Positions 940-60,618 of a stretch of DNA of 64,000 bases are shown in pieces. The number at the start of each line of letters is the position of its first letter. Position 1 is the stretch's first letter. The DNA is taken from positions 3,402-67,401 of the forward strand of contig JAIOYZ010000022.1 of the NCBI GenBank assembly GCA_021740845.1, in the 5' to 3' direction. Below the pieces are notes generated by a model. That model was given only the letters and a program-made list of their open reading frames with translations, was not told the DNA's origin and did no database searches. A program made the translations under genes and the position numbers. This DNA comes from Bacteroidia bacterium. Its GTDB lineage: Bacteria > Bacteroidota > Bacteroidia > UKL13-3.

Positions 940-1869
940 CTATTTCACCAAATAAAACCGATAAATCAAATCTATTCTAAAGAGCAAGCCGTCTGCGAAA
1001 TCTGAATTGAGTTGCTTTCTTTTGTCGCCAAAACGGAAAGCGCTTAAGCCAAATGCAACCTTGTCTTGAATATCATATAGCCTATAATTTCTGCCTACAC
1101 TATAACCCAAATTAGCTTTTAAAATAATTCCCTTTTTAGGTTCAAACCCCAAGTAAGTATACAATTCATTGCTGGTCTTAGCTAAATATTCACCTTTGTC
1201 TTGGTAGTAAGTTTGGTGCAAATTATATGTTCTCACAAACGCATTAAAGCGCACGCCTGCATATACTTTTGGGTCGAAATGGTAATTGATATCTGCCATA
1301 AAAGGCAAGGTTAAATCTGCTTCAAATTTTTGGTTCAAACTTTTATAGTACAATCCCAACAAGGGTGAAATAAATGGTCCAAACAATTCTCCATTATAAT
1401 ACAAAGCCATCTTGTATTTGAGTTGTGGACTTTTGGCATATTTAAACAATAGCAATCCACCCAATTGAAAGTCTTCTTTTACAATTTTATTTATAATATC
1501 CGTCTTCACTAAATCAGATGCCAAGCGCGGAATTACAACTGCCGTTCCCGACCAGCGTTCGCTTATTTGTCGGTTCAAACCGGCCTTAAATATTATGCCT
1601 GTAACACTGCCGCTTTGCCCTGTTGGCGTTAAATTGGCGTACATCCATTCTACATCTAAACCTGTTATGAAATTTGTTTTATCGTTTATTTTTATGGGTA
1701 GGGTAGAGGAAAAACTTAAGTCTTGAACCCTCGTTTTGCTTAAGGAACTATCAAATTGGTTTAGTGGTGTATTGGTATAAAAAACATTCACCAAATCGAG
1801 GTAATTTTGGGCTTGAACCGAACCAAAAAAGGAGCAGCATAAAATAAGAAAAAGTTGAATTTTTTTCAT
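940..1869 (-). CDS. Outer membrane beta-barrel protein (DUF6268-like)
   Basis: Signal peptide, amphipathic beta strands, C-terminal YRF-type strand. Confidence 0.6.
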   Translation of the reverse strand: MKKIQLFLILCCSFFGSVQAQNYLDLVNVFYTNTPLNQFDSSLSKTRVQDLSFSSTLPIKINDKTNFITGLDVEWMYANLTPTGQSGSVTGIIFKAGLNRQISERWSGTAVVIPRLASDLVKTDIINKIVKEDFQLGGLLLFKYAKSPQLKYKMALYYNGELFGPFISPLLGLYYKSLNQKFEADLTLPFMADINYHFDPKVYAGVRFNAFVRTYNLHQTYYQDKGEYLAKTSNELYTYLGFEPKKGIILKANLGYSVGRNYRLYDIQDKVAFGLSAFRFGDKRKQLNSDFADGLLFRIDLIYRFYLVK

Positions 1870-1977
1870 AGGCGTAATGACTGTTGGAACTAACCTTTAA
1901 TCGAATATAATTTTTTTCAAGCTATTCCCTTAAAATTTGAATCAATCCTAGTATAATTTAGTAATTTCGGTTCAAAT

Positions 1978-3489
1978 ATGAAAATCTTAACAACCCTGCA
2001 AATTAAGGCTTGGGACAAATTTACAATACAAACAGAACCTGTTAGCAGTCTTGGTTTAATGGAGCGTGCAGCTGCAAGATGTTTTCAAGAAATGAAGGTG
2101 CATTTAATGGAAGAATTTTCATCACTTTCTAAATTGAATTTTCAAGTGTTTTGCGGACAAGGAAACAATGGTGGCGATGGTTTGGTAATTGCTCGTTTCT
2201 TAAAAATGGAAGGACTTTCAGTTGAAGTATTTATAGTAAATGAAAGGGAAAAAGGAAGTGAAGATTTTGAATTGAACCTAGCTCGTGCCAGCGCCATTGG
2301 TATAGTTCCGCAATTTATAGATTCAAATTTTGGTTTGAACCAAATCAAAAATGCCGATGTTTTAATTGATGCTTTATTGGGTTCTGGATTGAACAACCCA
2401 TTAACGGGTTTATACAAAGAATTAGTAAATATGCTCAATGAAAAACCAGGAATCAAACTCTCGGTTGATATACCTAGTGGCTTGTTTGGTGATATAGAAA
2501 CTGCCATTCAAAATATAGATTCAGCTTCCTTTAAAGCAGATAGGACCTATACCTTTCAAGTTCCAAAATCGAGTTTCCTCTTTGCAGAAACTGCCCAAAA
2601 TGTAGGTGAGTTTTCTACTATCAATATAGATTTGCATCCCGATTTTTTGGTTCAAACCGAAACCTCTTGGAACTATTTGCAACAGGAAGAATTAGAAAAC
2701 AGAAAGCATAGTAAGTTTGATTTTAAATGGCAAAAAGGTCATGCCTTAATAGTTGCCGGAAGTTATGGAAAAATAGGAGCAGCACTCTTGGCAGGCAAAG
2801 CATGTTTGAGCACGGGATGCGGCTTGCTAACAGCATTTACGCCCAAAGTAGGCTATATTCCTTTTCAATCTTCCTTTCCAGAATGCATGGTATTAACAGA
2901 TGAAGAAGAGTTGGAAATTAGAAACTTTCCAGCAATTACAAACTATAATGCAATAGGAGTTGGTCCTGGTTTGGGCACACATTTAGGCACCCAAAAAGCT
3001 TTAGAAAAATGGCTTTCCACTATTAATAAACCAATTGTAATAGATGCAGATGCACTTAATTGTTGTGCTGCTATTATTAACGCAAATCCAGATTTTAACT
3101 TTCCTGTAAACTGTATTTTAACACCACATGCCAAAGAGTTTGATAGATTATTTGGAGCTAGCAATAATGCATATGAGCGTTTGTTAAAGGCTGTTGAAAT
3201 GGCTAAGAAATACAATATAACTTTCGTTTTAAAAGGGGCACATACACAAATTGTTTCACCTTCTGGCCAAGTGTTTTTTAATTCAACAGGGAATAATTTA
3301 TTAGCAACTGCTGGAAGTGGAGATGTGCTTACTGGAATCATAACTTCCTTATTAGCTCAAGGTTATTCAACACTTTCGGCAGCTAAAAAAGGAGCGTTTT
3401 TGCATGGATTGCTTGCTGATAAACTTCAACAAAAAGGATTTAAGAATATTCTCGCAAGTGATATTATTAAAGAATTGAAGTTTTTATAA
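1978..3489 (+). CDS. nnr: Bifunctional NAD(P)H-hydrate epimerase/dehydratase
   Basis: LMERAA, CGQGNNGGDG, DALLGSG, DIPSG (YjeF-N); GPGLG, IDADAL, TPHAKEF, TAGSGDVLTG (YjeF-C). Confidence 0.95.
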   Translation: MKILTTLQIKAWDKFTIQTEPVSSLGLMERAAARCFQEMKVHLMEEFSSLSKLNFQVFCGQGNNGGDGLVIARFLKMEGLSVEVFIVNEREKGSEDFELNLARASAIGIVPQFIDSNFGLNQIKNADVLIDALLGSGLNNPLTGLYKELVNMLNEKPGIKLSVDIPSGLFGDIETAIQNIDSASFKADRTYTFQVPKSSFLFAETAQNVGEFSTINIDLHPDFLVQTETSWNYLQQEELENRKHSKFDFKWQKGHALIVAGSYGKIGAALLAGKACLSTGCGLLTAFTPKVGYIPFQSSFPECMVLTDEEELEIRNFPAITNYNAIGVGPGLGTHLGTQKALEKWLSTINKPIVIDADALNCCAAIINANPDFNFPVNCILTPHAKEFDRLFGASNNAYERLLKAVEMAKKYNITFVLKGAHTQIVSPSGQVFFNSTGNNLLATAGSGDVLTGIITSLLAQGYSTLSAAKKGAFLHGLLADKLQQKGFKNILASDIIKELKFL

Positions 3490-3954
3490 CTTAGCTAAAA
3501 TTTGTTCGTAATCGTATCTTAAATCTTCGTGTAATTTTCCCAATAATTTGGCAATTTTTTCTATTTGCCTTTGGTATATAGATTCAATGGCTTGGTATTT
3601 TCTCCAATAAGATTTGCAGTTTTTTAATTCCTCGCAAAAGTGCAATAACAATTCAATTTCTGTTTGAACCAATTTGCTGTACTGTGCGTATTGATTGACA
3701 ATGCGAAGGGTTTTACGAATATACTTAGTGCTAAAGAAAAGACTATTAGTAGGCATATTTACAAAGCGTTCGCTAATATCTTGCTTTGCTTGTTCAATAT
3801 ATTTGTCTTCATTTTGTGCTTCAAACAAAAGGTAATGTGCTAACTCTTTATTGGCTTTTTTAAACTTAGCCAATCGCAAACAAAGTTCAATCAATTCTGC
3901 TTGTGGCAAATGCTGAAGTTCTTTTTTTATATGTGCAATACTAGCAGCTTCCAT
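3484..3954 (-). CDS. Hypothetical helical protein
   Basis: 156-aa ORF 2 bp downstream of the epimerase; LRLAKFKKANKEL and KLHEDLRYDY resemble a Bacteroidota-conserved family. Confidence 0.75.
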   Translation of the reverse strand: MEAASIAHIKKELQHLPQAELIELCLRLAKFKKANKELAHYLLFEAQNEDKYIEQAKQDISERFVNMPTNSLFFSTKYIRKTLRIVNQYAQYSKLVQTEIELLLHFCEELKNCKSYWRKYQAIESIYQRQIEKIAKLLGKLHEDLRYDYEQILAKL

Positions 3955-5025: not shown

Positions 5026-6093
5026 CTATTGACTATTTGTTAAGAATGAGTTGAATCGATCAATGTCAATTTCATTAAACAAGGGCGTTCCTTCCTCTAA
5101 ATGCTGTAAATAATGCTCCGATAAAAAGGGCGCTTGCAACATTCCTTTTGTTCCCAATCCATTGAAAATATACAATTGATTTTTACTTGGATGTTCTCCC
5201 AAAATTGCTGCTCTATCTCTTGTAGTGGGCCTTATTCCAGCAAAATGATTGTCGATTTCAAAGGGTAATTCTATAATTTGTTTTACTTTCTCAATCAAAC
5301 TTTCCTTGCCTTTTTCGTTTATTGTTTCATCCTCAAAATCCCATTCGTAAGTGGCGCCCACTTTGTAAACATCTTCATATTGATGCACTAAGTAAACTCC
5401 TTTTTTCAATATATATCCAGGGTTTAAACCCTTGCATTTTATTTGCAATACTTGTCCTTTACAAAGTTTAAAAGGCAAGTAATTAAAGTATGGATTGTCT
5501 TGATTTTTATAGCCTTCACAAAATATCACTTTGTCGTAAATCTTGTTTTCGTATTCCCATTTTCCTTCTACTTGTTTTAAGTTTTCATAAGAAAATTCGG
5601 TTTGAACCAAATGCCCATTTTCTGATAAATAGTTTTGAAAATCACTTATCCATTCTGCCGTTTTTACCCAGCCTGTTTGGTTCACTTGAAAATAACCAAA
5701 TTCTTTTAACAATGGAGTTTCAACTTGAGGGTCGGCCTCTACGTATTGTTTGAAGTTCTCCTGATCTAATCGTGTACTAAAATCGTTGGATTCTTTTACG
5801 TTTCCAAAGCCTTGAAGTATGGGAGCTTTTACTAAATATTGTCTACCTAGCCAAGTTTCCATTTCATTAAAGGAAGCATGCAAACTGCTCAATAATTCAT
5901 TGGCTTTCCAATTAACGGTCATGCGTTTTCCACTGATTGGATTAAACATTCCAGCTGCCACTTTACTAGATGTAAACTCACTCTTTTTATCAACTAATAA
6001 GAATTGAATTTGGCGTTTTTTTAATTGGTAGGCAAGCATCAATCCTGCAATTCCTCCACCCACAATTAGGTATTTCTTTTCTGAATTATTCAT
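5026..6093 (-). CDS. FAD-dependent oxidoreductase (DAO family, MnmC C-terminal-like)
   Basis: GGGIAG FAD motif, SSKVAAGM, KGQ, GATY, AGIRPTT, GLGTKG; overlaps the mnmD stop by 8 bp. Confidence 0.85.
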   Translation of the reverse strand: MNNSEKKYLIVGGGIAGLMLAYQLKKRQIQFLLVDKKSEFTSSKVAAGMFNPISGKRMTVNWKANELLSSLHASFNEMETWLGRQYLVKAPILQGFGNVKESNDFSTRLDQENFKQYVEADPQVETPLLKEFGYFQVNQTGWVKTAEWISDFQNYLSENGHLVQTEFSYENLKQVEGKWEYENKIYDKVIFCEGYKNQDNPYFNYLPFKLCKGQVLQIKCKGLNPGYILKKGVYLVHQYEDVYKVGATYEWDFEDETINEKGKESLIEKVKQIIELPFEIDNHFAGIRPTTRDRAAILGEHPSKNQLYIFNGLGTKGMLQAPFLSEHYLQHLEEGTPLFNEIDIDRFNSFLTNSQ

Positions 6094-6778
6094 TTGGTAT
6101 TTGCAGTTTTATGGCGCGTAACATATGGCGTTTGTGTGGTGGACCTGCAATTTTCTCCACTTTAAAACCAACGGCTTGCAAATTCCTTCTTACATCTCCT
6201 TTGGCAGAATAGGTTACTAAAATTCCATTTTCTTGCAAGCAATTAAATAGCTTTTGAAACAATTCTATAGTCCAAAGTTCCGCTTGTTTTTCAGGACCAA
6301 ATGCATCAAAATAAATTAAATTATAGGATTCTTTTGGTTCAAACAATTCTAAACCTTGCTGTATTTTTTTTAAGGTAAATCTAGGTGTAATTTCTTCTTC
6401 TTTATTCCAAAAACAAGTATGAAGTTTTATAAAATCAGAATTTTGTTCAATCGTCCAATTTGCATTGTAATCAAGCATCTTCACCAAATCATAGCTTAGA
6501 GGTATGGTTTCTAAACTGTGATAAGTACAATTGAAATTTTGCTTCTTACTTTCCAATAAAGTTAGCATTGCATTTAAGCCGGTACCAAAACCAATTTCAA
6601 GAATTTTTATTTCTGTCAACTGCGTTTGGTTCAAACCAAAATTTAACCCAGCCTCTATAAAAACATGCTTGCTTTCTATAACAGCGCCATGCACCGAATG
6701 ATAGGTTTCATCAATATCTTTTCGGTAAAGTGTTTTTAATCCTTCTGTATTGCTTACTATTTCTGGAACAGTTGGCAT
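6086..6778 (-). CDS. mnmD: tRNA (mnm5s2U34)-methyltransferase MnmD
   Basis: YHSVHGAVIESKHVFI, EIGFGTGLN, YFDAFGP, TYSAKG, GPPHKRHML. Confidence 0.9.
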   Translation of the reverse strand: MPTVPEIVSNTEGLKTLYRKDIDETYHSVHGAVIESKHVFIEAGLNFGLNQTQLTEIKILEIGFGTGLNAMLTLLESKKQNFNCTYHSLETIPLSYDLVKMLDYNANWTIEQNSDFIKLHTCFWNKEEEITPRFTLKKIQQGLELFEPKESYNLIYFDAFGPEKQAELWTIELFQKLFNCLQENGILVTYSAKGDVRRNLQAVGFKVEKIAGPPHKRHMLRAIKLQIPNE

Positions 6779-10483: not shown

Positions 10484-10524
10484 CCTTAACTAGGCACGTT
10501 TATCTTAAGTGTTTTGTATTTTAT

Positions 10525-10620
10525 TTCGGTTTGAACCAACCCATTTTTCAATAAGTTTTTAATTTATTGGAGAATGGGTTTCTTTTTGGCGCATTAAAAC
10601 TCCTTATTGGTTTGAACCAA
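10525..10620. repeat. Two same-orientation copies of the dispersed motif flanking a hairpin
   Basis: TTCGGTTTGAACCAA 10525-10539 and TTGGTTTGAACCAA 10607-10620. Confidence 0.85.
10538..10587 (+). terminator. Probable terminator hairpin
   Basis: AACCCATTTTTCAATAA ... TTATTGGAGAATGGGTT followed by T-rich run. Confidence 0.55.
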
Positions 10621-10641
10621 GCAATAGTTTAAATTGCTCAC

Positions 10642-11431: not shown

Positions 11432-13243
11432 TTAGTCAGATAACAAGGTTGCCAGCAATTGTTCCTCCTCGCTAATTTCTTCTTCACCCAAAGTCATAGC
11501 AGTTTCTATTAATGCTAAATGCGAATAGGCCTGAGGGAAATTGCCTAAAAGCCTTTTGGTTTTAAAATCAATATCTTCACTAAACAAACCCAAATGGTTG
11601 GAGTATGATAATAATTTTTTGAACCTTGATTTGGCTTCTTTTTTATATCCAATTTTATAAAGGGAATTAATCAGCCAAAAGGTGCAAATGGTAAATGCAG
11701 AATTAGGTGTTCCAAAATCATCTTGGTTGCGGTACCTATAAAGTAAACCATCTTCCTCCAATTGATTCATAATTGCCAATACAGTTTTTTTATAACGTTC
11801 ATCTTGCACGTCAATAAAACCATAATCTTCCATTAGCAAAACAGATGCGTCCATATCATCTGAGCCATAGCTTTGCGCAAAACCTTGCGACTTTTCGCTC
11901 CAGGCTTTTTCAAAAATATCTTTCTTGATTGTTTTGGATAATAGGTTCCACTTTTCTGCATACTCAGTTTGGTTCAGCAATAGGGCGATTTTTTCTGCTC
12001 TATCAATTGCCACCCAACAAAGCACTTTGCTAAAAGTAAAATGCCTATCCTCTGTTCTAATTTCCCAAATACCTTTATCTGGTAATTGCCAATTTTCATC
12101 CACCCCTCTAACAATTCCCCTAACGATAGTCCAGAGTTCTTCACTTAAGCCAATATCAGTTGGGAATAGTAAAAAATGTTGATGAATAACGTCCATCAAA
12201 ATACCATAAATATCATTTTGCTTTTGTTCAAATGCAGCATTTCCAATTCTTACTGGTTTAGAATTTTTATACCCTGATAAATGATCGAGTTCCTTTTCAA
12301 CTAAATTTTTCTCACCACCAATGCCATACATAATTTGCATCTTATGACCTTTGTCGGGTAATAGACCAATAATAAATTTAAGGTAATCATTTGTAGAAAT
12401 GGTATGCCCCAATTTCACCTTTATTTTAATCACCATTGAGGCATCTCTAATCCAACAAAAACGATAATCCCAGTTTCTAACTTCTCCAATGGTTTCTGGT
12501 AATGAAGTGGTAATTGCTGCTAAAACAGCTCCAGATTTATGATAGGTAAGTAGTTTTAATGTTAAGGCACTTCTTATAATTTCCTCCGAATAAAATTTAA
12601 AAGTGGTAGTTTTATCCGACCAGTTGAGCCAATATAAACGTGTTCGTTGTAATTTTAAATAAGTTCGTTTTATATCTTGTTTTAGAATTTTTTGATTGTA
12701 GCTAAGTAACATAAACGAATCTGCCCTTAGTTCCTGCCATTCTTGTTTGGCAATTGAATTTAAATTTAATGCCGAGTATAAATATATTGAATCGTATTCG
12801 CCCTTTGCTGTATACGCTTTAATATAATTCTCTTTTATTTTAAACCTAGTTTCTGGCGCGGCATACTCTAATTTTGGTTCAAACCGAATACTTATAATTG
12901 GGCTACCATTAATAAGTTTAATATATCTAATTAGATCTGGTGGCAAATAAGCAATACCTCCTTCATGTTCATACCTTGGCATAAAATCATGTACCTCAAA
13001 TTGACCTTCTGTGCTAATAAATCCTGTAATTAAAATGCAAGTATTGGTCTCATAATGCTGGTAACTAGAAAGTAAATTTTTTACCTCAATTTTCCACGAA
13101 CCTCCTTTGTTTTCATCCAACAGAGCACCAAATGTAGACGGAGAATCAAACCTTGGTAAACATAGCCAATCTATTGAACCGTTTTTTGATACCAACGCTG
13201 CACTTTGGCAATTACCTATAACTCCATAATCTAAATTATCCAT
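11432..13243 (-). CDS. Glycoside hydrolase family 15 (trehalase/glucoamylase-like)
   Basis: IDWLCLPRFDS, TTSLPE, RNWDYRFCWIRD, GIWEIR, LGNFPQAYSH. Confidence 0.92.
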   Translation of the reverse strand: MDNLDYGVIGNCQSAALVSKNGSIDWLCLPRFDSPSTFGALLDENKGGSWKIEVKNLLSSYQHYETNTCILITGFISTEGQFEVHDFMPRYEHEGGIAYLPPDLIRYIKLINGSPIISIRFEPKLEYAAPETRFKIKENYIKAYTAKGEYDSIYLYSALNLNSIAKQEWQELRADSFMLLSYNQKILKQDIKRTYLKLQRTRLYWLNWSDKTTTFKFYSEEIIRSALTLKLLTYHKSGAVLAAITTSLPETIGEVRNWDYRFCWIRDASMVIKIKVKLGHTISTNDYLKFIIGLLPDKGHKMQIMYGIGGEKNLVEKELDHLSGYKNSKPVRIGNAAFEQKQNDIYGILMDVIHQHFLLFPTDIGLSEELWTIVRGIVRGVDENWQLPDKGIWEIRTEDRHFTFSKVLCWVAIDRAEKIALLLNQTEYAEKWNLLSKTIKKDIFEKAWSEKSQGFAQSYGSDDMDASVLLMEDYGFIDVQDERYKKTVLAIMNQLEEDGLLYRYRNQDDFGTPNSAFTICTFWLINSLYKIGYKKEAKSRFKKLLSYSNHLGLFSEDIDFKTKRLLGNFPQAYSHLALIETAMTLGEEEISEEEQLLATLLSD

Positions 13244-15511: not shown

Positions 15512-15597
15512 TTGCCTACCTCTCATCGACAAATTTCTCCCATTGATAGAAATATTGAAGGCTTGAAAATTTGCACCTTATATTTGCCGTTCATATT

Positions 15598-17484
15598 ATG
15601 GCAAAAAGAAGTTTCAATAGCAATGGTAACCTAAAGCAGGAACCAGAAAAAGCAAAAATAACCAAAGAGAGTTTAAGGGAGGCATTATCATTATTTGCCT
15701 ACATAAAGCCTTTTAAAGGCAAGTTTATTTTAAGTTTAATATTCATTGCCCTTTCGGCTTTTAGCACTATGATTTTTCCTTTCCTTTTAGGAAAAATGAT
15801 TGACGCTGCTGCTCCGGGTGCCAATGTGCAAATGCCTCAAGCTGGCATGAATACAGATGCCCTCGGATTTAACCTCAAAACCGTTCAGTGGAGTTTAAAT
15901 ACCATTTTACTGTTATTGTTTCTTCAACTTTCGGTTCAAACCATATTTTCTTTTATGCGTATTTACTTGCTTACCGAGGTGGGTGAGAAGTCTCTAGCAA
16001 ATATGCGCACAGATTTATACGGTAAGTTATTGAGCCAACCCATGAGCTTCTACAGCGACCAAAGGGTAGGGGATTTAAGCAATAGAATTAGTTCTGATTT
16101 ATCCCAAATACAAGATGCCATTTCCTTTACTTTGGCAGAATTTCTCAGAGGAATATTTACCCTGGTAATAGGCCTAAGTTTCATCTTCTGGATATCAACC
16201 GAATTGGCTTTGGTAATGTTAGCAGTGGTGCCTCTAATTGCAGTTGTTGCTGTAGTCTTTGGTGTTCGTATCCGCAAAATGGCTCGCAAAGCACAAGACC
16301 AATTAGCAGAAAGTGGTACCATTGTTCAAGAAACTTTCCAGGGTATTTCCATTGTAAAAGCTTTTACCAGCGAAGCCTACGAAATGGCTCGCTATAGAAA
16401 AAGTATTTTTGGCGTAGTAGAAACCGCTATTTCCAATGCTCGTTATAGAGGTGCCTTCGTATCCTTCATGATTTTTAGTGTTTTTGGTTCCATCGCTTTT
16501 GTAATGTGGTACGGCGCTGGCATGATTAAAAGTGGAAACCTTAGCGCTGGTGATTTAACCATGTTTGTTATATTCTCAGCATTTGTGGGTGGCACATTCG
16601 CCGGTTTTGCAGATATGTTTAGTCAGTTGCAAAAAACTTTAGGTGCCACGCAAAGAGTGAGAGAATTACTTCGTCAAAAGGGCGAAGAGGTAGATTTAGA
16701 AAAGACTTCAAGTAATTTCAAAAATCCTATTAGGGGTAATGTAAGCTTTCAAAATATTGCTTTTAGCTATCCTTCCCGACCAGATGTGCAAGTTCTCCAT
16801 GATATAAATATTGAAGTAGAATTTGGTCAGCAAGTTGCTTTGGTAGGTCCTAGTGGTGCGGGAAAAAGTACCATTGCTTCCTTGCTATTAAAGTTTTTTG
16901 AACCAAGTTCAGGTAAGATTTTTTTTGATACCATTTGCAGCCAAGATTTTGGATTAACTGATTTAAGAAGGCAAATTGCATTTGTGCCTCAAGATGTAAT
17001 TTTATTTGGTGGTTCCATTAAAGAAAATATCGCATATGGTAAGCCAGATGCAACATTAGAAGAGATAATGGCAGCTGCAACAAAGGCAAATGCACATGAG
17101 TTTATCAATCGCTTTCCAGAAGGTTATGATACCATTGTGGGAGAGAGGGGCATTAAATTAAGTGGTGGACAAAGACAGCGAATTGCCATAGCTCGTGCCA
17201 TTCTAAAAGATCCTGCCATTCTAATTTTGGATGAGGCAACTAGTTCTTTAGATAGCGAAAGCGAACAATTGGTTCAAGAAGCCTTAGATTACTTGATGAA
17301 AGGTAGAACCAGCTTTGTAATTGCCCATCGTTTGTCAACTGTGCGCAATGCAGATAAAATTATAGTAATAGATAAAGGTACCGTTCAAGAAATTGGTACC
17401 CACGAAGTTTTAATGAGTAAATCGGATGGCATTTACCGCAAATTGGTGGATTTACAATTAGAATGGTCTTCCCTTGAGAAATAG
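15598..17484 (+). CDS. ABC exporter, fused permease/ATPase (MsbA/MdlB-like)
   Basis: TM helices, GPSGAGKS, LSGGQRQR, ILDEATSSLD; start moved to ATG 15598 downstream of TATATTTG at 15579. Confidence 0.93.
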   Translation: MAKRSFNSNGNLKQEPEKAKITKESLREALSLFAYIKPFKGKFILSLIFIALSAFSTMIFPFLLGKMIDAAAPGANVQMPQAGMNTDALGFNLKTVQWSLNTILLLLFLQLSVQTIFSFMRIYLLTEVGEKSLANMRTDLYGKLLSQPMSFYSDQRVGDLSNRISSDLSQIQDAISFTLAEFLRGIFTLVIGLSFIFWISTELALVMLAVVPLIAVVAVVFGVRIRKMARKAQDQLAESGTIVQETFQGISIVKAFTSEAYEMARYRKSIFGVVETAISNARYRGAFVSFMIFSVFGSIAFVMWYGAGMIKSGNLSAGDLTMFVIFSAFVGGTFAGFADMFSQLQKTLGATQRVRELLRQKGEEVDLEKTSSNFKNPIRGNVSFQNIAFSYPSRPDVQVLHDINIEVEFGQQVALVGPSGAGKSTIASLLLKFFEPSSGKIFFDTICSQDFGLTDLRRQIAFVPQDVILFGGSIKENIAYGKPDATLEEIMAAATKANAHEFINRFPEGYDTIVGERGIKLSGGQRQRIAIARAILKDPAILILDEATSSLDSESEQLVQEALDYLMKGRTSFVIAHRLSTVRNADKIIVIDKGTVQEIGTHEVLMSKSDGIYRKLVDLQLEWSSLEK

Positions 17485-19020: not shown

Positions 19021-19030
19021 AATCCACCCC

Positions 19031-19217: not shown

Positions 19218-19337
19218 CATCCCGTAAGTACACATTTACGGTTGAACCATTTTTCGCAAAACCTTGTTCTCTTGCCAACGATAACAAGTTCTCCCCTAAG
19301 TATTTAGCCGTTAATGGTGCCTGCTTTAATATTTTTT

Positions 19338-20948: not shown

Positions 20949-20967
20949 GTTTGAACCAAAACCACAG

Positions 20968-23003: not shown

Positions 23004-23190
23004 TTGGTTCAAACCGAATTAAAATAAAAAAACCAATCTATGGCAAGTAGATTGGTTTTTTTGAGTATCAAGTAAAATGATTTTAGATATCAGCTAATGT
23101 GCCAATACTTTGCCAAATAATTTTTATTTCATTTTAATTTCATTAATCAGCTATTAATCAGTTGTTAAAAAGTTTTTCGGTTTGAACCAA
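23004..23190. repeat. Inverted pair of exact 15-mer motif copies
   Basis: TTGGTTCAAACCGAA 23004-23018 and TTCGGTTTGAACCAA 23176-23190. Confidence 0.88.
23026..23062 (-). terminator. Intrinsic terminator for the minus-strand tyrS operon
   Basis: AAAAAAACCAATCTA-loop-TAGATTGGTTTTTTT. Confidence 0.8.
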
Positions 23191-28736: not shown

Positions 28737-28740
28737 ACCG

Positions 28741-29751: not shown

Positions 29752-29782
29752 ACGTATATCCCACAAAAATATAAAAATTACC

Positions 29783-47180: not shown

Positions 47181-47445
47181 TGTGTCTTAATAATTTGCCG
47201 CGAAAATAAGGAAACATTGGGGTAATACAAGCGTCAAAATGTTTGTTCAATCCTTTTTTTATTGCTTCATTTTTTGTACTAAATATCTTTATTTCAGTGT
47301 GTTTTATTTGTTTTGTCAATTGTTTGTTGGTAAATTTTATCTTATAATTTTTATCATGTTTTCAGTAATTAAATACATTTTCGGTTTGAACCAATAAATG
47401 GATTTTTGATTTGGTTACTTGCTCCCTTTTCCATTTTATTTGAAG

Positions 47446-48165
47446 ATGCCAAAAACAAATAAGCTTCTATTAATTGATGTTTTATCATCCTTAGATTTAT
47501 TAGTAAACCAGAAGAGAAAGGAATTTGGTGAAACTAGTTATCCCACCAAACTAAAAATTTTGGGTGTTGCCAATCCAGATTTAAAAAAGGTTTTAAAGGA
47601 AATTAAACTGGCCACCAAAGATTATTCGAGTATTGAAAAATTTAATTTTGCTTTGGATTTGGTTCAAACCGAAATATTAGAATGCCTTTTATTGGCCTAT
47701 GAGTTTTTAGGTTCAGATAAAGCTGCCTTGGCATTATTTGGGGAAAGTGATTTGAAAAAATTTGATATTGGATTTGATAATTGGGTTATAATTGATACTT
47801 ATGGGTCTTTTATTTTAGGAGTTGCTTGGAGAAACGGGCAAATAAAAACTGATACCATACATAAATTAACTCAACACCCAGATTTTTGGAAACGTAGGTT
47901 AGCATTGGTGGCCACGGTTCCATTAAATTTAAGATCACGCGGAGGAAAAGGTGATGCTGCAAAAACTTTAGCAGTATGTAAATTATTAGTAAATGATCAC
48001 CAAGATATGATAGTTAAAGCGCTTTCTTGGGCTCTTCGTTTGCTAAGCCATTTTCACCGAACTGAAGTGGAGGAATTTATGATAGAATATGATTTACAAT
48101 TGCACCCAAGAGTGAAAAGAGAGCTTACTAATAAATTAACCACCGGACTAAAAAATCCTCATTAG
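47446..48165 (+). CDS. DNA alkylation repair (AlkD-like HEAT-repeat) protein
   Basis: DNW..D, WKRR.ALV, IVKALSWALR. Confidence 0.82.
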   Translation: MPKTNKLLLIDVLSSLDLLVNQKRKEFGETSYPTKLKILGVANPDLKKVLKEIKLATKDYSSIEKFNFALDLVQTEILECLLLAYEFLGSDKAALALFGESDLKKFDIGFDNWVIIDTYGSFILGVAWRNGQIKTDTIHKLTQHPDFWKRRLALVATVPLNLRSRGGKGDAAKTLAVCKLLVNDHQDMIVKALSWALRLLSHFHRTEVEEFMIEYDLQLHPRVKRELTNKLTTGLKNPH

Positions 48166-50165
48166 AATTTATATCTCAATTGAATCTTATATTCTTCAAA
48201 ATGGTTGCTATTGATTTGGTCTAACCCACTTCCAATTGTAGTGGATTCAGGTAAATAGGTTTGCGAAAACCTCCAGTCTAAAACCAGATTTTTTGTAATT
48301 CTATAATTCCCCATAAGGTAGAATCTGATGCCCGTATTTTGCATTTGATAACTGCTATAATTGTATAAAATATCTCCTTCCAAAACATAAATTCTAGCCA
48401 AGTAATCCGAAACATTAAATAGCTGTATTCTGCCATGAAAACTATATTTCTTTTTGAGTTGATGCCAAGAGAAATCGTGGTACATCATATGTCCGCTCAC
48501 CCAAGTATTATCAGTCTTTTTTACCCAAATTTTCTCTGCTCTAAACCTATAGGTACTTTGGTCGGATATGCCTAATTGGTATTGGATTCTAAATTGATAT
48601 TTTTCTTCTGTTCCAAGTTTTTTGATGCTACTAATCTCTTTAGAAAAGTCTTTTTCTTTGTGAGTGAAAACACCTCTCAAATAAAGCTGACTAGTTTTAG
48701 AAAGACTCAAATTATAATCGGCAAAAAGTTCATATCCTTGAGAAGGGAATGACACTTGGTATCTCGGATTTTTGCTTTGAAATACATCAAGGTAAAAGCT
48801 ATATTTTATTTTCCTTTTTGGAGTGAATACCAAAGCGGTATAATAACCAATTTCATTTCCAATACTTCCATAAGTTGACCAAGCTTTTGAATAGGGATTA
48901 TTGTAAATTGCAGGGTAGTTTCTGTAAATAAAAATCCAGTCGGTTTTGCTGTTTAATGGGAGACTAATGTTAAACAGATAGGCTGTTTTCCCTTGAAAGG
49001 GCTTGGATATTTCACCACCTAAACTTGTGTTTTTTAATTGGTAGTTTCCATAAAATCCAATTTGTTTTTGGGCGGTTTGAACCAAATTTGTTGCTGTTAA
49101 ATTTGAGGAGGAGCCGGTTTGGTTCAAACAGAAAATTGAACCTAATTTGAGGCTTTTAAATTGATATTTTGTATGGAAACCACTTGACCATTGTAATCCT
49201 GAGTTTTTTCTTGAAAGCTCCAATGGTGTTCGGTGGTATCCTGATGAATTTATTGCAGATAAAAAGTCTTCTTGCATTAAACTGTCGTATTGAATTTGAG
49301 CAGTAAGGGGAGATGCGCTTAACCAAAAATCTGAATGGAATTTATTCTTTTCCATACTTACGGCGACACCTCTTAAAAAACCACTTTCACCTAGAGATCG
49401 GTAGGGTAGTATTCCATCTCTGTTGATTTGCGACTGCAAAACCATAGATGATTTGGCTCCAAAGCCAGATGTTCCCATATTTAACCCCATGCCAAGATTA
49501 AGATGGTAATCTCCAATTGCCAAGGTTTTTAATAATTTATTACCTTGATACATGATATGAAAAGTTTGGAAATCTCCCATTTTGCCAAAGGGTTCACCTG
49601 GGTCTTTTTCTATTCCAAATCCATAATACAAACGTTTTTGAAAATTACCCCTTAATCGAATGGATTGATGCAGTGGATTTCCTAAGTAGGCATCCTTGTC
49701 TAGGTAACCTTTAGCCTTAGGAAGTTTTATTTCACTACAAATAATTATTTCTTTTTGGCTTAGTTGAGTCATCTTCCATACCCTAAAATAATCGCTTTGT
49801 TTTGATTCGGTTAAGCTAATAAAATTGGCCATTAAGCTTGCCAATTCTGGAGAAAAGCCTTCAATGGCTTGGAGTTCGTATTTGCTAATAAACGGGCCAT
49901 TTGCTCTCTTATGTTTTAATATAGATTGAATTTGGTTTTGGTTCAAAAAGAATAATTTTTCTAGATCATTTTCATTGGCTTTATTAATTTGAATTGGGTT
50001 TTGAATTAAATCAAGCACTTGTGTTTCTAAAAAGCCAGGTTCAAAATAGCCTTGTTGGTTTTCTAGATAGGTTTCGAGTTTAATTTGCAAGGTTTTTGGA
50101 ATATCCTGCCCATAATTTCTAGAGAAAATAAGGCATAAAATTCCTATGAGAAATAGTCGATTCAT
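48162..50165 (-). CDS. Helix-hairpin-helix (ComEA-like) domain plus outer membrane beta-barrel protein
   Basis: PIQINKA...GPFISKYELQAIEGF HhH; EKDPGE, GDYHLNLGMGL, GYHRT; terminal LRYKF. Confidence 0.82.
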   Translation of the reverse strand: MNRLFLIGILCLIFSRNYGQDIPKTLQIKLETYLENQQGYFEPGFLETQVLDLIQNPIQINKANENDLEKLFFLNQNQIQSILKHKRANGPFISKYELQAIEGFSPELASLMANFISLTESKQSDYFRVWKMTQLSQKEIIICSEIKLPKAKGYLDKDAYLGNPLHQSIRLRGNFQKRLYYGFGIEKDPGEPFGKMGDFQTFHIMYQGNKLLKTLAIGDYHLNLGMGLNMGTSGFGAKSSMVLQSQINRDGILPYRSLGESGFLRGVAVSMEKNKFHSDFWLSASPLTAQIQYDSLMQEDFLSAINSSGYHRTPLELSRKNSGLQWSSGFHTKYQFKSLKLGSIFCLNQTGSSSNLTATNLVQTAQKQIGFYGNYQLKNTSLGGEISKPFQGKTAYLFNISLPLNSKTDWIFIYRNYPAIYNNPYSKAWSTYGSIGNEIGYYTALVFTPKRKIKYSFYLDVFQSKNPRYQVSFPSQGYELFADYNLSLSKTSQLYLRGVFTHKEKDFSKEISSIKKLGTEEKYQFRIQYQLGISDQSTYRFRAEKIWVKKTDNTWVSGHMMYHDFSWHQLKKKYSFHGRIQLFNVSDYLARIYVLEGDILYNYSSYQMQNTGIRFYLMGNYRITKNLVLDWRFSQTYLPESTTIGSGLDQINSNHFEEYKIQLRYKF

Positions 50166-53677: not shown

Positions 53678-53709
53678 AAAAAGCCAACTAATTTTAGTTG
53701 GCTTTTTTT
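53678..53709. terminator. Bidirectional intrinsic terminator
   Basis: AAAAAGCCAACTAA-tt-TTAGTTGGCTTTTT between convergent genes. Confidence 0.85.
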
Positions 53710-54367
53710 ATGCCTCAATTTTGGGTTGGCTTTTAAGAATGGCACCTAAAAAGATAATGTATAACCCAATATTCATTATCACATGACTAATATCTTTGTA
53801 ATTGAAATAGGTATGTAAGGAGAACTGCATGGTATGAACCAAGATAGACAAGGAACTAAACGCGAATCCGAATACTATCCACCCACTTCCCTTAATTCCT
53901 TTCTTATAGGTTTGAAAATGGGTAATAAGGGTAATTAATATGATTAAACCTGCATTTACTTTGATTAGTAGGAATTGATTAACACTTATAACCATTATAG
54001 CTAAAAGCAGGGTTACAATTGCAGAAGCAATGCTTAGTTTCTTTTTAGTGACTTCGTCCCATTTTGAAAGTTGAATATTTGCCTGCAAAAGGAAGTAGGA
54101 GGCAGGAATACTAGCTAGATTCATAAAAAGCCAGATATAATAAAACTCATTGGAACTAAAATGGTTTTTTAGGCCGTGGGTTAAAGCACCTACAAGTGTA
54201 GAAATTGCCATATATAGAAAGAAAAGTCTCCAATAGTATCCCAGTTTATGGTTTGAACCTAATTTGCTATAAAAATAGAAACAATAAATACTCATCACCA
54301 AATTGGTGAGAACAGTCATTGGCTCATTGATATTGAACTGAAATAAATTAAAACTTGTTTCCTGCAT
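53708..54367 (-). CDS. Seven-TM membrane protein (DUF6962-like)
   Basis: EPMTVLTN, GALTHG, FNYKDISH; hydrophobic helices. Confidence 0.7.
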   Translation of the reverse strand: MQETSFNLFQFNINEPMTVLTNLVMSIYCFYFYSKLGSNHKLGYYWRLFFLYMAISTLVGALTHGLKNHFSSNEFYYIWLFMNLASIPASYFLLQANIQLSKWDEVTKKKLSIASAIVTLLLAIMVISVNQFLLIKVNAGLIILITLITHFQTYKKGIKGSGWIVFGFAFSSLSILVHTMQFSLHTYFNYKDISHVIMNIGLYIIFLGAILKSQPKIEA

Positions 54368-56992: not shown

Positions 56993-58375
56993 TTATGGGT
57001 GCGGCACTTTTTCTATGGCTTTTCCTATAAGGCTAGTTTGGGTAGTCTTTTCAATTTTAACTCTAACGTAATCGCCCCTTTCAAAATTTTCTTTAGGGAA
57101 AATAACTATTGTATTAAATTCATTTCTACCTCTAAAATCTTGATCGGAACGTTTAGATAATCCTTCAACTAGCACAGTATGAATTTCACCTTCTTGGCTT
57201 CGGTTCAAACCAACACTTATTTCTTGTTGCGCGCTTATGATTTCTTGAAGTCTTCTTTTCTTATCTTCTAAATTTACATCATCTGCATGTCTTCTAGCAG
57301 CAAGTGTTCCAGGCCTTTCGCTATAAAAATACATATATGCAAAATGGAATCTAGCATACTTGATAAACTCTAATGTGTCTTTATGTTCCTCTTCCGTTTC
57401 TGTACAAAAGCCCGAAATGGTATCGGTAGAAAGGGCACAGTTGGGCAAAACCTCTCTAATTTTTGCCAAACGTTTTTTAAGCCATTCTTGGTCGTAGGTT
57501 CTATTCATTAATGAAAGAACTCTATCGTTACCCGACTGAATAGGGAAATGAATATGATTACAGATATTGCTATATTTTTTCATGGTATAGAGCACCTCAT
57601 CTGTAATGTCTTTTGGGTGTGAGCTACTAAATCTAACTCTTAAATCTGTAGCAATTTGGGCAACTTGTTCTAGTAGTTGGGCAAAATTACTTTGGATGTT
57701 TCCGTTTTCATCCAATTCTTTATAGGAATCTACGTTTTGACCCAATAAAGTTACTTCTTTATAACCAGCATTGTAAAGCTCTTGAGCCTCGTTAACAATG
57801 GATTTGACATCTCTGCTACGCTCTCTGCCTCTTGTAAAAGGAACTACACAAAAAGAGCACATATTATCGCAACCACGCATGATGCTGATAAATGCAGTTA
57901 CGCCATTGGAACTTAAACGAACTGGAGTGATTTCTGCATAAGTTTCTTCTCTAGAAAGCAAGACATTTACTGCTTTTTGGCCCTCTTCAACTTGCTTTAT
58001 TAATTGAGGAATATCTCTGTAAGCATCAGGACCAACAACGATATCTATGATTTGTTCTTTTTCTAAAAGTTGTGCTTTTAAACGCTCAGCCATGCAACCC
58101 AAAACGCCAATAATCATCCCCGGATTTTTGCGTTTATAAGGCCTCATTTCTTTTAATCTTCCCCAAACATGCGATTCTGCATTGTCTCTGATGGCGCAAG
58201 TGTTTACAAATATCACATCCGCATCGTCCATATTCTGCGTTGTTTTGAAACCTTTATCTGCCATAATGGAGGCAACCACTTCACTATCTGCTAGGTTCAT
58301 AGCACAGCCATATGTTTCTATATATAAGTTTCTAGTTGCTTGTTCTGATATTATATGAGAAGTAACTCCTTTCAT
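56993..58375 (-). CDS. miaB: tRNA-2-methylthio-N6-dimethylallyladenosine synthase
   Basis: [38 protein letters not shown] domain. Confidence 0.97.
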
Positions 58376-58528: not shown

Positions 58529-58609
58529 TTCGGTTTGAACCTAAAAATGCAGAAAATAGGATTTATTTAAGCATGAATTTTTCTTTACTGGCGCTTGGTT
58601 CAAACCGAA
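58529..58609. repeat. Inverted pair of motif copies in the divergent miaB/rmlD intergenic region
   Basis: TTCGGTTTGAACCTA 58529-58543 and TTGGTTCAAACCGAA 58595-58609. Confidence 0.85.
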
Positions 58610-58701
58610 ACTTTTTTGATAGATACAAATAAATAGATGAATTAACACAACTGAAATCGGTTCTTTTTATGGATATTGCAGCACCATTTTACAGATTTAT
58701 T

Positions 58702-59607: not shown

Positions 59608-59765
59608 GATTTATTTTATTAAAAGAACCTGAAGCAGCAGGATTTGTTTTTTGGTTTTTAACGGAGTTGTTTTTTGCGGGAGTGGTGGTGTTTTTATTGT
59701 ACTATTTTTTTATAAAGAATCCAAAAATAAATAAAACTCCAAGGAGAGATGAAGAAGAGGATTAA
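59604..59765 (+). CDS. Small single-pass membrane protein (53 aa), absent from the ORF track
   Basis: MRFILLKEPEAAGFVFWFLTELFFAGVVVFLLYYFFIKNPKINKTPRRDEEED; ATGA overlap with the rmlD stop. Confidence 0.65.
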   Translation: MRFILLKEPEAAGFVFWFLTELFFAGVVVFLLYYFFIKNPKINKTPRRDEEED

Positions 59766-60480
59766 TTATTTTATTAAGACTTATTTTTATTTTAATAATC
59801 AGGAGAAAAAGGGAGTTTTTTCTCTCCTGATTTTAATTGTCGTTTTTCAAATTTTGGCACTATTATTTAATCCATTTTTTGAGCCTAAAAAACAGCTTGT
59901 AGAAGCAACTGTTTTAAATGATTTTTTAGTTTCAAATGCTATTCAAAATTCAAACGATTTTTCTAAAGATTTTCAGTTTAAAAAAGCCACGTTTGCAAAG
60001 CAAGATTTTGAGAAAAATAATACCTTTAAATCCTATAGTAAGGATTCATCTTATTCCTCTAAAAAGGTGTTTGTAAAATTGCCTTTAGAAATGAATTCAT
60101 GTGATAGTGCTTCCTTAGTTTACTTGCCTAAAATTGGACCAGCATTGGCAAGCAGAATTATTAATTATCGCAATAGATTGGGCGGTTTTTATAACTTAGA
60201 GCAATTATGCGAAATTTATGGTTTTAAAGAAGATTTTTTGTATGATTTAGAAGGTAAGATTTGGATAGATAAAACTCTAGTAAAACCAATTTTGCTAAAC
60301 ACAATTTCATTAACAGAATTAAAAACACATCCTTATTTTAAATATACACTTTCTCAAGCAGTAATTAACTATAGAAAACAACATGGAGTTTTTGTTGAAA
60401 TGGAGGATTTGAAAAAAATAAAATTAGTGAACGATTCTATTTATAATTTGATATCACCTTATTGTTTTATAAACAAATAA
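59749..60480 (+). CDS. ComEA-like helix-hairpin-helix DNA-binding protein, membrane anchored
   Basis: N-terminal TM; LEMNSCDSASLVYLPKIGPALASRIINYRNRLGGF and a second HhH (INYRKQHGVF). Confidence 0.88.
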   Translation: MKKRINYFIKTYFYFNNQEKKGVFSLLILIVVFQILALLFNPFFEPKKQLVEATVLNDFLVSNAIQNSNDFSKDFQFKKATFAKQDFEKNNTFKSYSKDSSYSSKKVFVKLPLEMNSCDSASLVYLPKIGPALASRIINYRNRLGGFYNLEQLCEIYGFKEDFLYDLEGKIWIDKTLVKPILLNTISLTELKTHPYFKYTLSQAVINYRKQHGVFVEMEDLKKIKLVNDSIYNLISPYCFINK

Positions 60481-60618
60481 ATTTTTACTTTTATTTTTCG
60501 GTTTGAACCAATTAAAAGGAAAATATTGAAACAGAAAATTCTGGAATTGAATAAATTAAATTAGAATTCAATTTTAGTTGTAATTTCATTATACTTGCCC
60601 CAAATAATACACCCATTT

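Follow-up and report, generated by a model that had tools for sequence, protein, structure and literature searches.

The question raised by a 64-kb stretch of the genome of a freshwater Bacteroidota (hereafter the window) is why one short DNA word recurs in it far more often than expected by chance. The original prediction, made from the window, was that the word is a signal for uptake of self-DNA, or else the site of a DNA-binding or DNA-modifying protein. This reading fits the pattern described below and is partly supported.

Results

Abundance of the word and comparison to null models

Dinucleotide shuffles, each of which contained 0-1 copies of the 10-mer core, served as the null model for the window. 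The core is present 29 times (14 on the plus strand and 15 on the minus strand), compared to a shuffle mean of 0.14 and a maximum of 1; the earlier chance estimate of ~0.07 core copies per window is of the same order as this mean. All 11 positions given for the exact 15-mer were recovered, and 0 of 100 shuffles produced even a single match. The listed one-mismatch copies are present for the 10-mer core (at 1332, 3661, 6336, 17565, 30695 and 49121); for the full 15-mer, only those at 3658 and 49119 stood. Allowing at most one mismatch, we found 52 matches to the core in the window versus 4.09 expected, and 21 matches to the 15-mer versus 0.01 expected.

The claimed enrichment was understated, and it persists genome-wide. 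The 4.09-Mb genome contains 1,323 copies of the core (676 on the plus and 647 on the minus strand) and 536 copies of the 15-mer, and the core belongs to the 10-mer family that ranks first by frequency in this genome. The Markov expectations for the core are 21 (order-3) and 94 (order-5). The enrichment was also kept under a codon-aware null model: there are 765 core copies in coding sequences, compared to 48-72 in 10 synonymous-codon shuffles (~13-fold) and 6-13 in five codon-order shuffles (~85-fold). These enrichments indicate that the proteome itself is biased toward motif-compatible peptides; a proteome imprint has likewise been reported for USS and DUS (PMC2817400).

The logo of the genomic copies shows a word that is discrete and asymmetric, ttCGGTTTGAACCaAa; its flanks are random, and information drops to zero past ~16 bp. 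In the single-mismatch spectrum, the TGAACC core is nearly invariant, while the left part is tolerant; there are 728 perfect 12-mers versus 815 one-off copies. The asymmetry is pronounced: the forms C..TG..A account for 387 + 341 copies, versus 17 + 19 for the mirror forms. One word of 12-16 bases is present in more than 1,000 copies across this genome, and it is also found genus-wide.

Placement of the copies

The word had been described as evenly dispersed, free of strand bias and present inside genes, and all three properties extend to the whole genome. Every large contig carries it, at 0.15-0.48 per kb among the 25 largest contigs. Neither strand nor replication polarity was detected (GC-skew table 208/196/191/189), the word is not confined to one chromosomal domain, and the gaps are close to random, with a median of 1,911 versus 1,935 expected for an exponential distribution of the same mean (2,792). 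By crude ORF calls, 764 of the 1,323 copies (58%) are coding, in five frame/strand combinations, 530 (40%) are intergenic and 29 lie at boundaries; the sixth combination is barred by an in-frame TGA. Spacers of all three types have densities of 1.06-1.49 per kb, whereas the 764 copies within 3.59 Mb of coding DNA correspond to ~0.21 per kb, which makes the word approximately five times denser between genes. Inverted pairs within 60 bp were found in 38 cases, and for these hairpins are possible. The word is missing from defence islands, from a TerY-PP2C-kinase cluster and from a polysaccharide locus. The copies in the window are listed in Table 1, together with two genes for candidate uptake proteins.

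Table 1. Copies of the word and candidate machinery genes in the window
Feature	Position	Strand	Context
Core 10-mer	1139..1148	-	inside ORF 940..1869(-)
Core copy	1572..1581	-	inside ORF 940..1869(-)
Core copy, 15-mer with 1 mismatch	2332..2341	+	inside ORF 1978..3489(+)
Exact 15-mer	2647..2661	-	inside ORF 1978..3489(+); conserved at orthologous place in G005
Exact 15-mer	5596..5610	+	inside ORF 5026..6093(-)
Core copy	6628..6637	-	ORF 6086..6778(-); G004 differs at 5/10 core positions, no indel; G005 alignment gapped
Exact 15-mer	10525..10539	+	intergenic (10483-10642)
Core copy	10609..10618	+	intergenic (10483-10642), shared with 15-mer at 10525
Exact 15-mer	12874..12888	-	inside ORF 11432..13243(-)
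Core copy	15933..15942	-	inside conserved ORF 15571..17484(+); kept in 6/6 aligned relatives
Core copy	20948..20957	+	overlaps final stop-codon base of ORF 19314..20948
Exact 15-mer	23004..23018	-	intergenic (22920-23274)
Exact 15-mer	23176..23190	+	intergenic (22920-23274); CG dialect at this place in G012
Core copy	24005..24014	+	inside ORF 23274..24173(-); GGTTCGAACC here in G004, G016, G012
Core copy	28730..28739	-	junction of ORFs 27294..28736(-) and 28741..29766(-)
Core copy	29985..29994	-	inside ORF 29783..31234(-)
Core copy	30871..30880	-	inside ORF 29783..31234(-); kept in G012, one mismatch in G004
Exact 15-mer	35247..35261	+	inside ORF 34849..35604(-); CG dialect here in G012, G005
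Palindromic dialect TGGTTCGAACCA, sole window copy	37157..37168	.	G000:C3:40558-40569
Core copy	38640..38649	+	inside ORF 38628..39476(-)
Core copy	39098..39107	-	inside ORF 38628..39476(-); 1-2 bases different in relatives
Core copy	42698..42707	-	inside ORF 41919..43118(-); 4-5 core positions differ in relatives
Exact 15-mer	47380..47394	+	intergenic (47180-47419)
Exact 15-mer	47659..47673	-	inside ORF 47419..48165(+)
Core copy	49074..49083	+	inside P0001 gene
Core copy	54250..54259	+	inside ORF 53708..54367(-)
Core copy	57202..57211	-	inside ORF 56993..58375(-)
Core copy	58532..58541	+	intergenic (58375-58669); inverted pair with 58595-58609
Exact 15-mer	58595..58609	-	intergenic (58375-58669)
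Exact 15-mer	60497..60511	+	17 bp past stop of ComEA-like gene (P0002)
P0002, 243 aa, candidate machinery	59749..60480	+	N-terminal hydrophobic segment, two ComEA-type HhH domains
P0001, 667 aa, candidate machinery	48162..50165	-	signal peptide, ComEA-type HhH, large predicted outer-membrane beta-barrel

Genus restriction, dialects and origin of the copies

The 13-mer occurs in 24 of 24 genomes of the genus, at 11-301 copies each, whereas 94 genomes from 16 sister genera have 0-3 copies, the level of the controls; reversed patterns, used as controls, gave 0-3 copies. The density of the word varies ~50-fold inside the genus. The assignment of the DNA to Bacteroidota is backed by the named organisms that carry the 15-mer and by the homologues identified. 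No earlier description of such a word for this phylum was present in the literature searched, as had been supposed, and a comparable word appears to be undescribed for Bacteroidota.

The dominant form is asymmetric, yet there is also a CG-centred dialect, TGGTTCGAACCA, which is a perfect 12-bp palindrome, with 65 sites in this genome, 0-74 per genome of the genus and 0-1 elsewhere. In relatives, the dialect is found at orthologous sites. A CpG-to-TpG transition separates the TG form from the CG form, and on the genus tree the TG form is expanded in at least three distinct branches. Neither the palindromic dialect nor the restriction to one genus was part of the original prediction.

Some sites are kept between species that are ~25% diverged (for example, the copy at 15933). 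Conversely, at 42698 the core sequence of the relatives deviates at 4-5 positions without any indel; therefore, this site arose by in-place substitutions. New copies of the word arise by point substitution in place, without indels (42698, and 6628 in the comparison to G004).

Transformation genes

ComEC, DprA and a ComEA-like protein are encoded in the genome, and a ComF-like ORF scores 86.8 bits, under the equivalog cut-off of 233.55. Because genes for ComEC, DprA and ComEA are near-universal, the presence of these four is weak evidence for uptake. All 25 genomes of the genus have an intact ComEC, and a homologue of P0001, a member of a widespread and uncharacterised Bacteroidota family, is present in 24 of 25; since both are nearly constant despite the ~50-fold range of density, no corresponding loss of genes is seen where the motif is scarce. 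In this 100%-complete genome, no PF00263 match (secretin) was found, and the best PF00437 match (PilB/PilT-type ATPase) reaches 18.9 bits, below the cut-off of 24.9. With no type IV pilus genes, a ComP-like pilin receptor is impossible, and uptake would need a route of the Bacteroidota type. The DUF5689 surface lipoprotein of the Riemerella machine has only a sub-cut-off match, within a 1,958-aa ORF. We know of no competent member of this lineage.

Discussion

The abundance of the word, its DNA-level nature, the lack of polarity, the origin by substitution, the restriction to a genus, the dialects and the absence from islands are direct observations. Most of them resemble the DUS of Neisseriaceae and the USS of Pasteurellaceae, which are likewise short (10-16 bp) asymmetric words with a sharp core and looser flanks, number in the hundreds to thousands, lie on both strands and in several gene frames, are denser in spacers, form some inverted pairs, are taxon-restricted, have dialects, are missing from foreign DNA and leave a proteome imprint. 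Unlike DUS and USS, the word described here belongs to another phylum, to a genome in which type IV pilus genes were not found, has one perfectly palindromic dialect and varies ~50-fold in density within one genus. Chi, KOPS and REP/BIME are over-represented short words, too; however, Chi and KOPS are strand-polarised and REP is intergenic and hairpin-forming, whereas the word here is neither.

By analogy with DUS and USS, we tentatively favour the explanation that the word is a lineage-specific tag of self-DNA, quite possibly built by biased uptake and recombination; that uptake is the biased step is what we infer. A sequence-specific step of uptake or transformation would prefer fragments with ttCGGTTTGAACCaAa or the palindromic TGGTTCGAACCA, and preferential import of conspecific DNA, followed by homologous recombination, would spread new copies. 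These would arise by point substitution where tolerated, most easily in spacers, so that the word would become the commonest of the genome and protein sequences would be reshaped. The proposed route would lead through the predicted outer-membrane HhH-barrel P0001, then the ComEA-like P0002, ComEC, the ComF-like protein and DprA. Pilus-free natural transformation has been documented in Bacteroidota (PMC8459023; PMC7965970), and the genome shares with the Riemerella type the phylum, ComEC, DprA, a ComF-like and an HhH DNA-binding protein and the absence of pili (PMC8459023), unlike which it has no DUF5689 partner above the cut-off. Riemerella columbina favours its own DNA, and no motif behind this preference has yet been reported (PMC8459023; PMC7965970); the leading entries of a k-mer table for Riemerella genomes are all A-rich words, so that no comparable motif is known there (PMC7965970). 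Variation in density while the uptake genes (ComEC, P0001) stay nearly constant counts against the uptake explanation, as do the missing secretin and pilus ATPase and the sub-cut-off DUF5689 match, and a palindromic dialect could be recognised by a dimeric DNA-binding protein of the cytoplasm just as well as by a surface receptor.

The main rival is a site for an abundant genus-specific DNA-binding protein, with selection keeping many copies for reasons unrelated to uptake; such a protein could serve in nucleoid organisation or in self-marking for defence or repair. We consider this explanation unlikely, with a substantial chance of being correct nonetheless. The ancestral-looking TGGTTCGAACCA is a perfect palindrome as for a dimeric binder, of the two half-sites TGAACCA hardly varies and the other tolerates changes, part of the sites are retained at orthologous positions, recently acquired islands are without the word, and its density is not tracked by uptake genes. 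However, the copies show neither domain confinement nor polarity, their spacing is nearly random, and no candidate protein was identified in this analysis. To our knowledge, no nucleoid or partition protein has sites that are this abundant within genes, and there in every frame, or that make up the most frequent k-mer of a genome.

Fixation of mutations toward the word may alternatively be favoured by a methyltransferase or biased repair that recognises it, in a process resembling that of HIP1 (GCGATCGC) of cyanobacteria. According to PMC4390886, HIP1 is highly iterated both within and between genes, its orthologous sites are conserved, certain lineages carry derivative forms instead of the canonical one, and constraint is strongest at the central positions; the palindromic dialect, the replacing derivatives, the central constraint and the site conservation found here parallel these features. 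The CG to TG change is a CpG-to-TpG transition, the genomic CpG observed/expected ratio is 0.65, and the genome (G000) has eight PF02384 matches (type I/IIG-like N6-adenine methylases) of unassigned specificity. Unlike the phylum-wide 8-bp HIP1, however, the word is confined to one genus, and its dominant form is asymmetric and 12-16 bp long. A conserved methylase cognate to the word was not found: both a C5-cytosine methylase (PF00145) and Vsr are missing from this 100%-complete genome, which weakens a HIP1-style methylation route; PF01555 is above the cut-off in 7 of 25 genomes of the genus (not in G000, G006, G010 or G007); and the Dam-like PF02086 is present in 7 of 25, the G000 match containing two stops. 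Therefore, the distribution of the word is not matched by that of a methylase from any of these three families. In addition, TTCGAA, present 1,500 times versus 1,538 expected, shows no sign of avoidance, and the concerted asymmetry of the copies is unlike random CpG decay. We regard this explanation as improbable. By analogy, methylated copies might also aid transformation; HIP1 was reported to raise transformation efficiency (bioRxiv 10.1101/2024.09.10.611283).

Spread by insertion, with the word being a REP/MITE-like footprint or terminus of a mobile element or a transposase target, would be compatible with the enrichment in spacers and the inverted pairs, but has very little probability: the flanks are random past ~16 bp, the copies in ORFs fall in five frame/strand combinations, sites differ by substitutions without an indel (at 6628 in the G004 alignment and at 42698 in all alignments), the word alone appears unable to form a hairpin, judging from its sequence, no longer repeat family includes it, and no Rfam family matches the window. 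The possibility raised earlier, that the word is the end of an IS or MITE, is not borne out, and the mobile-element explanation is largely refuted by the random flanks, the ORF copies and the substitution origin. An origin of the word as a side effect of base composition, codon usage or a common peptide, for which only the low GC content speaks, is refuted to near certainty by the codon-aware null and the control-level counts in sister genera of similar composition, with the dinucleotide shuffles, the order-5 Markov expectation and the 40% of copies in intergenic DNA standing against it as well.

If the word is indeed a tag for DNA uptake, it may represent the first uptake-sequence system beyond Proteobacteria, a possibility that we consider doubtful but worth stating: a Chitinophagales-like freshwater genus would tag its DNA with ttCGGTTTGAACCaAa or TGGTTCGAACCA, and pilus-independent import would proceed through a conduit formed by a large outer-membrane barrel of the P0001 family with its periplasmic ComEA-type HhH domain. 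In that case, the CG-to-TG dialect shift would record the co-evolution of receptor and tag within one genus.

Results

The exact 15-mer TTCGGTTTGAACCAA, i.e., the longer form of the iterated DNA motif (hereafter, the word), has 11 copies in the window, at every one of the positions listed in the original prediction, and has 0 matches in any of 100 dinucleotide-preserving shuffles; the 10-mer core GGTTTGAACC has 29 (14 plus, 15 minus) versus a shuffle mean of 0.14. With up to one mismatch allowed, there are 21 copies of the 15-mer versus 0.01 expected, and 52 copies of the core versus 4.09 expected, the latter including the one-mismatch copies previously noticed near 1331, 3661, 6334, 17561, 30664-30700 and 49119. 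The genome that holds the window (G000; 4,088,294 bp in 66 contigs, 34.8% GC, completeness rated 100%) contains 1,323 copies of the core (676 plus, 647 minus) and 536 copies of the 15-mer. The top eight 10-mers of this genome are overlapping pieces of the word, the commonest with 1,550 copies, and the leading A-rich low-complexity 10-mer has 322. Markov models of order 3 and order 5 predict 21 and 94 copies of the core, respectively.

Codon-aware null models were applied to 3,219 genes, defined crudely as the longest non-overlapping ORFs rather than by gene-finder calls and covering 87.6% of G000. The core is found 765 times inside these genes, compared to 48-72 copies in ten synonymous-codon shuffles (performed per gene, with the protein kept) and 6-13 copies in five codon-order shuffles. 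The enrichment thus persists under the codon-aware null that had been proposed as a check, and the gap between the two null models shows that the proteins themselves are enriched in motif-compatible peptides. These shuffles, together with the control-level counts in sister genera described below, rule out an artefact of codon usage or base composition.

In a logo of 1,322 copies, the core and its immediate surroundings, from about -3 to +12, hold all the information (ttCGGTTTGAACCaAa; position +11 is A in 98% of copies), and the flanking sequence is at background level; the repeat families of the window have only the word itself and A/T-richness in common. The limits of the information and the background-level flanks indicate a discrete word of 12-16 bp rather than the end of a longer element. 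The possibility that the word is an IS or MITE end, which the original prediction had raised against itself, was checked in this way, and a mobile-element end is ruled out by the random flanks, the copies within ORFs, the origin of copies by substitution (see below) and the lack of a longer shared repeat. The 12-mer frame CGGTTTGAACCA has 728 perfect copies (both strands pooled) versus 815 copies with a single substitution. Across the six bases TGAACC, each substitution is as rare as chance predicts (0-8 copies), the second A excepted, where A-to-T is found in 50 copies and A-to-G in 27. The left part of the 12-mer is tolerant: 193 copies have T instead of C at -1, and T replaces G at its two positions in 94 and 75 copies. 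The C..TG..A combination has 387 occurrences and its reverse complement 341, versus 17 and 19 for the mirror-image combinations. This concerted asymmetry indicates that the word is specifically asymmetric and is not a randomly decayed palindrome. The window has no match to an Rfam family at gathering thresholds. A separate repeat of the window is the CCCAAAA array (see the table), the G-rich strand of which could form quadruplexes or serve as a slippage-prone switch.

Using the crude ORF calls, we assigned 764 of the 1,323 core copies to ORFs, 530 to intergenic DNA and 29 to boundaries, i.e., 40% of the copies are intergenic compared to ~12% of the genome. The density per kb is 1.15 in tandem, 1.06 in divergent and 1.49 in convergent spacers, and ~0.21 in coding DNA (764 in 3.59 Mb). 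Five frame/strand classes are represented among the coding copies (261, 71, 111, 38 and 283), the sixth being empty because TGA would fall in frame. These copies are spread evenly over gene deciles (98, 74, 70, 73, 73, 75, 82, 74, 76 and 70). Local GC skew has no bearing on orientation (208/196/191/189), which rules out a polarised word of the Chi or KOPS kind. Each of the 25 largest contigs has 0.15-0.48 copies per kb with balanced orientations; thus, the even dispersal, absence of strand bias and presence within genes claimed in the original prediction all hold. Gaps between copies are approximately exponential (median 1,911, mean 2,792), although close pairs are modestly over-represented (6.9% of gaps under 100 bp versus 3.5% expected). 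Among the pairs less than 100 bp apart, 62 of 88 are inverted; 38 inverted pairs lie within 60 bp, and stems of 14-16 bp are possible. A fixed distance from gene starts, as for a promoter or operator, was not seen: all three spacer types are similarly dense, and the only structure within spacers is an accumulation of copies within 20 bp past stops and a depletion over the final 10 bp ahead of starts. This placement indicates a signal that acts on DNA, irrespective of the direction of transcription or replication.

The longest motif-free stretches of G000 include three entire small contigs and two contig ends. A Pfam scan of 20 of their larger ORFs (3 without a match) revealed proteins of the defence type (HipA-like, radical SAM, HD-CE with HATPase, caspase-like peptidase, ResIII/PLD/DUF3427 helicase-nucleases) and a cluster of TerY-C/VWA, PP2C, kinase and PRTase. 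It also revealed genes for polysaccharides (UDP-glucose dehydrogenase, MBOAT) and, among other proteins, one with multiple PAS domains, one with a TonB C-terminal domain and one of the SPFH/zinc-ribbon type. Most of these stretches are typical flexible-genome islands, which indicates that the word marks long-resident core DNA. The cluster on contig C52 looks like a stress or defence cluster of the tellurite-resistance-associated "TerY-P triad" type.

The 13-mer CGGTTTGAACCAA has 724 copies in G000 and 11-301 copies in each of the 24 other genomes of the genus (designated by G numbers below), and its reversed-pattern control has 0-3 copies. It has 0-3 copies in 94 genomes from 16 other genera of the same family (any match in 20 of the 94) and 0-2 copies in 16 genomes from other families of the class. 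Among the matches listed (at least 80 loci, named genomes), the only multi-copy carriers are uncultured freshwater Bacteroidota, labelled Bacteroidia, Bacteroidetes, Chitinophaga or Chitinophagales, and other phyla show single chance hits. A phage reservoir was rejected: among the viral stretches listed (80 of at least 120), 79 have one copy and one has two, no more than we would expect by chance from a 14-mer in such a collection. Counting of k-mers in the samples from motif-poor G013 (180 kb) and G024 (218 kb) revealed no replacement dialect, and the same core is weakly enriched in both (7 and 8 copies). The word is a real, very strong, DNA-level signal of a single genus, and it is apparently new to the literature. 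As originally claimed for Bacteroidota, we found no such motif described for the phylum in the literature on uptake sequences or k-mers in Bacteroidetes, Riemerella and Chitinophagaceae; the literature matches to the spellings of the word, among those listed, concern unrelated, mostly eukaryotic, viral and unrelated bacterial systems.

The relatives have 64-84% DNA identity to G000 and are syntenic with it, and at least one relative could be aligned at 13 of the 29 window sites. The core is kept in 6 of 6 relatives at site 15933 and in G005 at site 2649. At site 42698 (three relatives) and site 6628 (G004), 4-5 of the 10 core positions differ with no indel, indicating that these copies arose by in-place substitution; the G005 alignment of site 6628 contains a gap. 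At sites 24005, 35250 and 23179, relatives have GGTTCGAACC in place of the GGTTTGAACC of G000. It was through orthologous alignments, rather than k-mer counts, that this CG dialect, the 12-bp palindromic variant of the dominant asymmetric TG form, came to light. The perfect palindrome TGGTTCGAACCA has 65 sites in G000, 0-74 in other members of the genus (for example, 74 in G001, 49 in G004, 48 in G009, 46 in G012, 45 in G017, 42 in G015, 9-12 in G006, G007, G010 and G014, and 0-1 in G013, G021 and G024) and 0-1 in other genera. On an unrooted tree of two adjacent genes (G020 missing), most branches retain it at ~5-20 per Mb and one clade has almost lost it. The TG form has expanded separately, to 177 per Mb in G000, ~50 in G016 and G012, 36 in G002 and 66-84 in G006, G007, G010 and G014 (these dialect densities are our own arithmetic from the 13-mer and palindrome counts). 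Restriction avoidance of TTCGAA is ruled out as the driver of the CG-to-TG shift (1,500 sites versus 1,538 expected). That the same word rose separately in different branches implies that a sequence-specific agent persists throughout the genus.

ComEC and DprA are present in G000, and a ComF-like ORF of 235 aa scores 86.8 bits, under the equivalog cut-off. No secretin was found in this assembly, and the PilB/PilT-like match is sub-threshold only, so that a type IV pilus machine is lacking. Two proteins with helix-hairpin-helix (HhH) domains encoded in the window, P0001 and P0002, are candidate uptake machinery; an exact 15-mer lies 17 bp downstream of the P0002 stop. In the P0001 model (mean pLDDT 81.5, confident), ~530 residues form a barrel of ~26 strands with an aromatic last residue. 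Foldseek matches were limited to large outer-membrane barrels of a generic kind (MtrB, TonB-dependent transporters, AlgE, FimD; TM 0.3-0.47), so that no specific family can be named. At E <= 0.001, 314 homologues of P0001 are found across Bacteroidota, and their names go no further than "ComEA family", "helix-hairpin-helix domain-containing" or "predicted porin". P0001 is found in 24 of the 25 genus genomes but at only 30-43% identity, whereas the neighbouring DNA is ~70-80% identical. Loss of ComEC or P0001 in motif-poor genomes was not seen. In G000, the Riemerella-type DUF5689 partner has only sub-threshold matches.

Features of the window and of other contigs
Feature	Sequence	Coordinates	Strand	Description
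P0002	window	59749-60480		hydrophobic N-terminus, two ComEA-type HhH domains
P0001	window	48162-50165	minus	signal-peptide-like start, one ComEA-type HhH domain, predicted large outer-membrane barrel
ORF upstream of P0001	window	50162-50986	minus	274 aa; 4-bp overlap with P0001; no Pfam or NCBIfam match
DUF5689-like repeats	G000, contig C42	111554-112666		at least 2 sub-threshold repeats within a 1,958-aa open frame
Tandem array	window	19014-19153		~20 copies of 7-base CCCAAAA, CTCAAAA in places; spacer ahead of ORF 19314..20948
Second array	G000, contig C49	117216-117329		93% identical to the window array
Motif-free cluster	G000, contig C52 (13 kb), locus L140	2183-12789		TerY-C/VWA, PP2C phosphatase, protein kinase, ComF-like PRTase (PF15610), PrsW protease
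Dam-like methylase fragment	G000, contig C25	9614-9994		PF02086; two in-frame stops; apparently decayed gene
Different repeat family	G013, contig C2	1-180000		includes the 12-mers AAGAAAGCTGCT and AGCTGCTCCTAA; ~10 occurrences across the 180 kb

Discussion

Our leading, though tentative, reading is that the word serves as a tag for self DNA, accumulated through biased uptake and recombination. In every computable respect, its anatomy is like that of the uptake sequences of Neisseriaceae (DUS) and Pasteurellaceae (USS), from which the case differs in the absent pilus machinery. A Riemerella study (PMC8459023) describes transformation that requires ComEC, DprA, ComF, RecA, an HhH protein, a DUF5689 surface protein and a CarboxypepD_reg outer-membrane protein, and needs no pilus. 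According to another report (PMC7965970), R. columbina favours its own DNA, but the k-mer table has A-rich words only. A pilus-free uptake route in Bacteroidota is therefore plausible.

The sequence-specific agent could instead be an abundant DNA-binding protein, an explanation that we consider rather unlikely. More doubtful still is a HIP-like repair or methylation bias, HIP1 being the cyanobacterial iterated palindrome. We found no C5 methylase and no Vsr in G000; PF01555 is above the cut-off in 7 of the 25 genus genomes, G000 not among them, and PF02086 has matches in 7 of the 25, the match in G000 having two stops. G000 has eight type I/IIG-like N6 methylase matches, and its CpG observed/expected ratio is 0.65 (0.65-0.84 in relatives). 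The HIP1-like route is thus weakened. It should be noted that HIP1 is reported in a preprint to raise transformation (bioRxiv 10.1101/2024.09.10.611283), so that the HIP-like explanation and uptake may converge. A mobile-element or compositional explanation is essentially excluded.

The origin of genome-wide iterated words is a long-standing question, and, to our knowledge, sequence-specific DNA uptake is known from two proteobacterial families only. If the word is indeed an uptake signal, this genus would be a third independent case, in another phylum and without pili. The dialects, and a density that varies 50-fold between species that are otherwise syntenic, constitute a natural experiment on the origin of such words, the alternatives being uptake bias with recombination, a chromosomal protein, or biased repair. 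Motif oligonucleotides used as bait would give a direct handle on DNA uptake in Bacteroidota, and the word may serve as a practical marker for binning and for host assignment of mobile DNA, as well as in the design of transforming DNA for this freshwater group rich in uncultured members.
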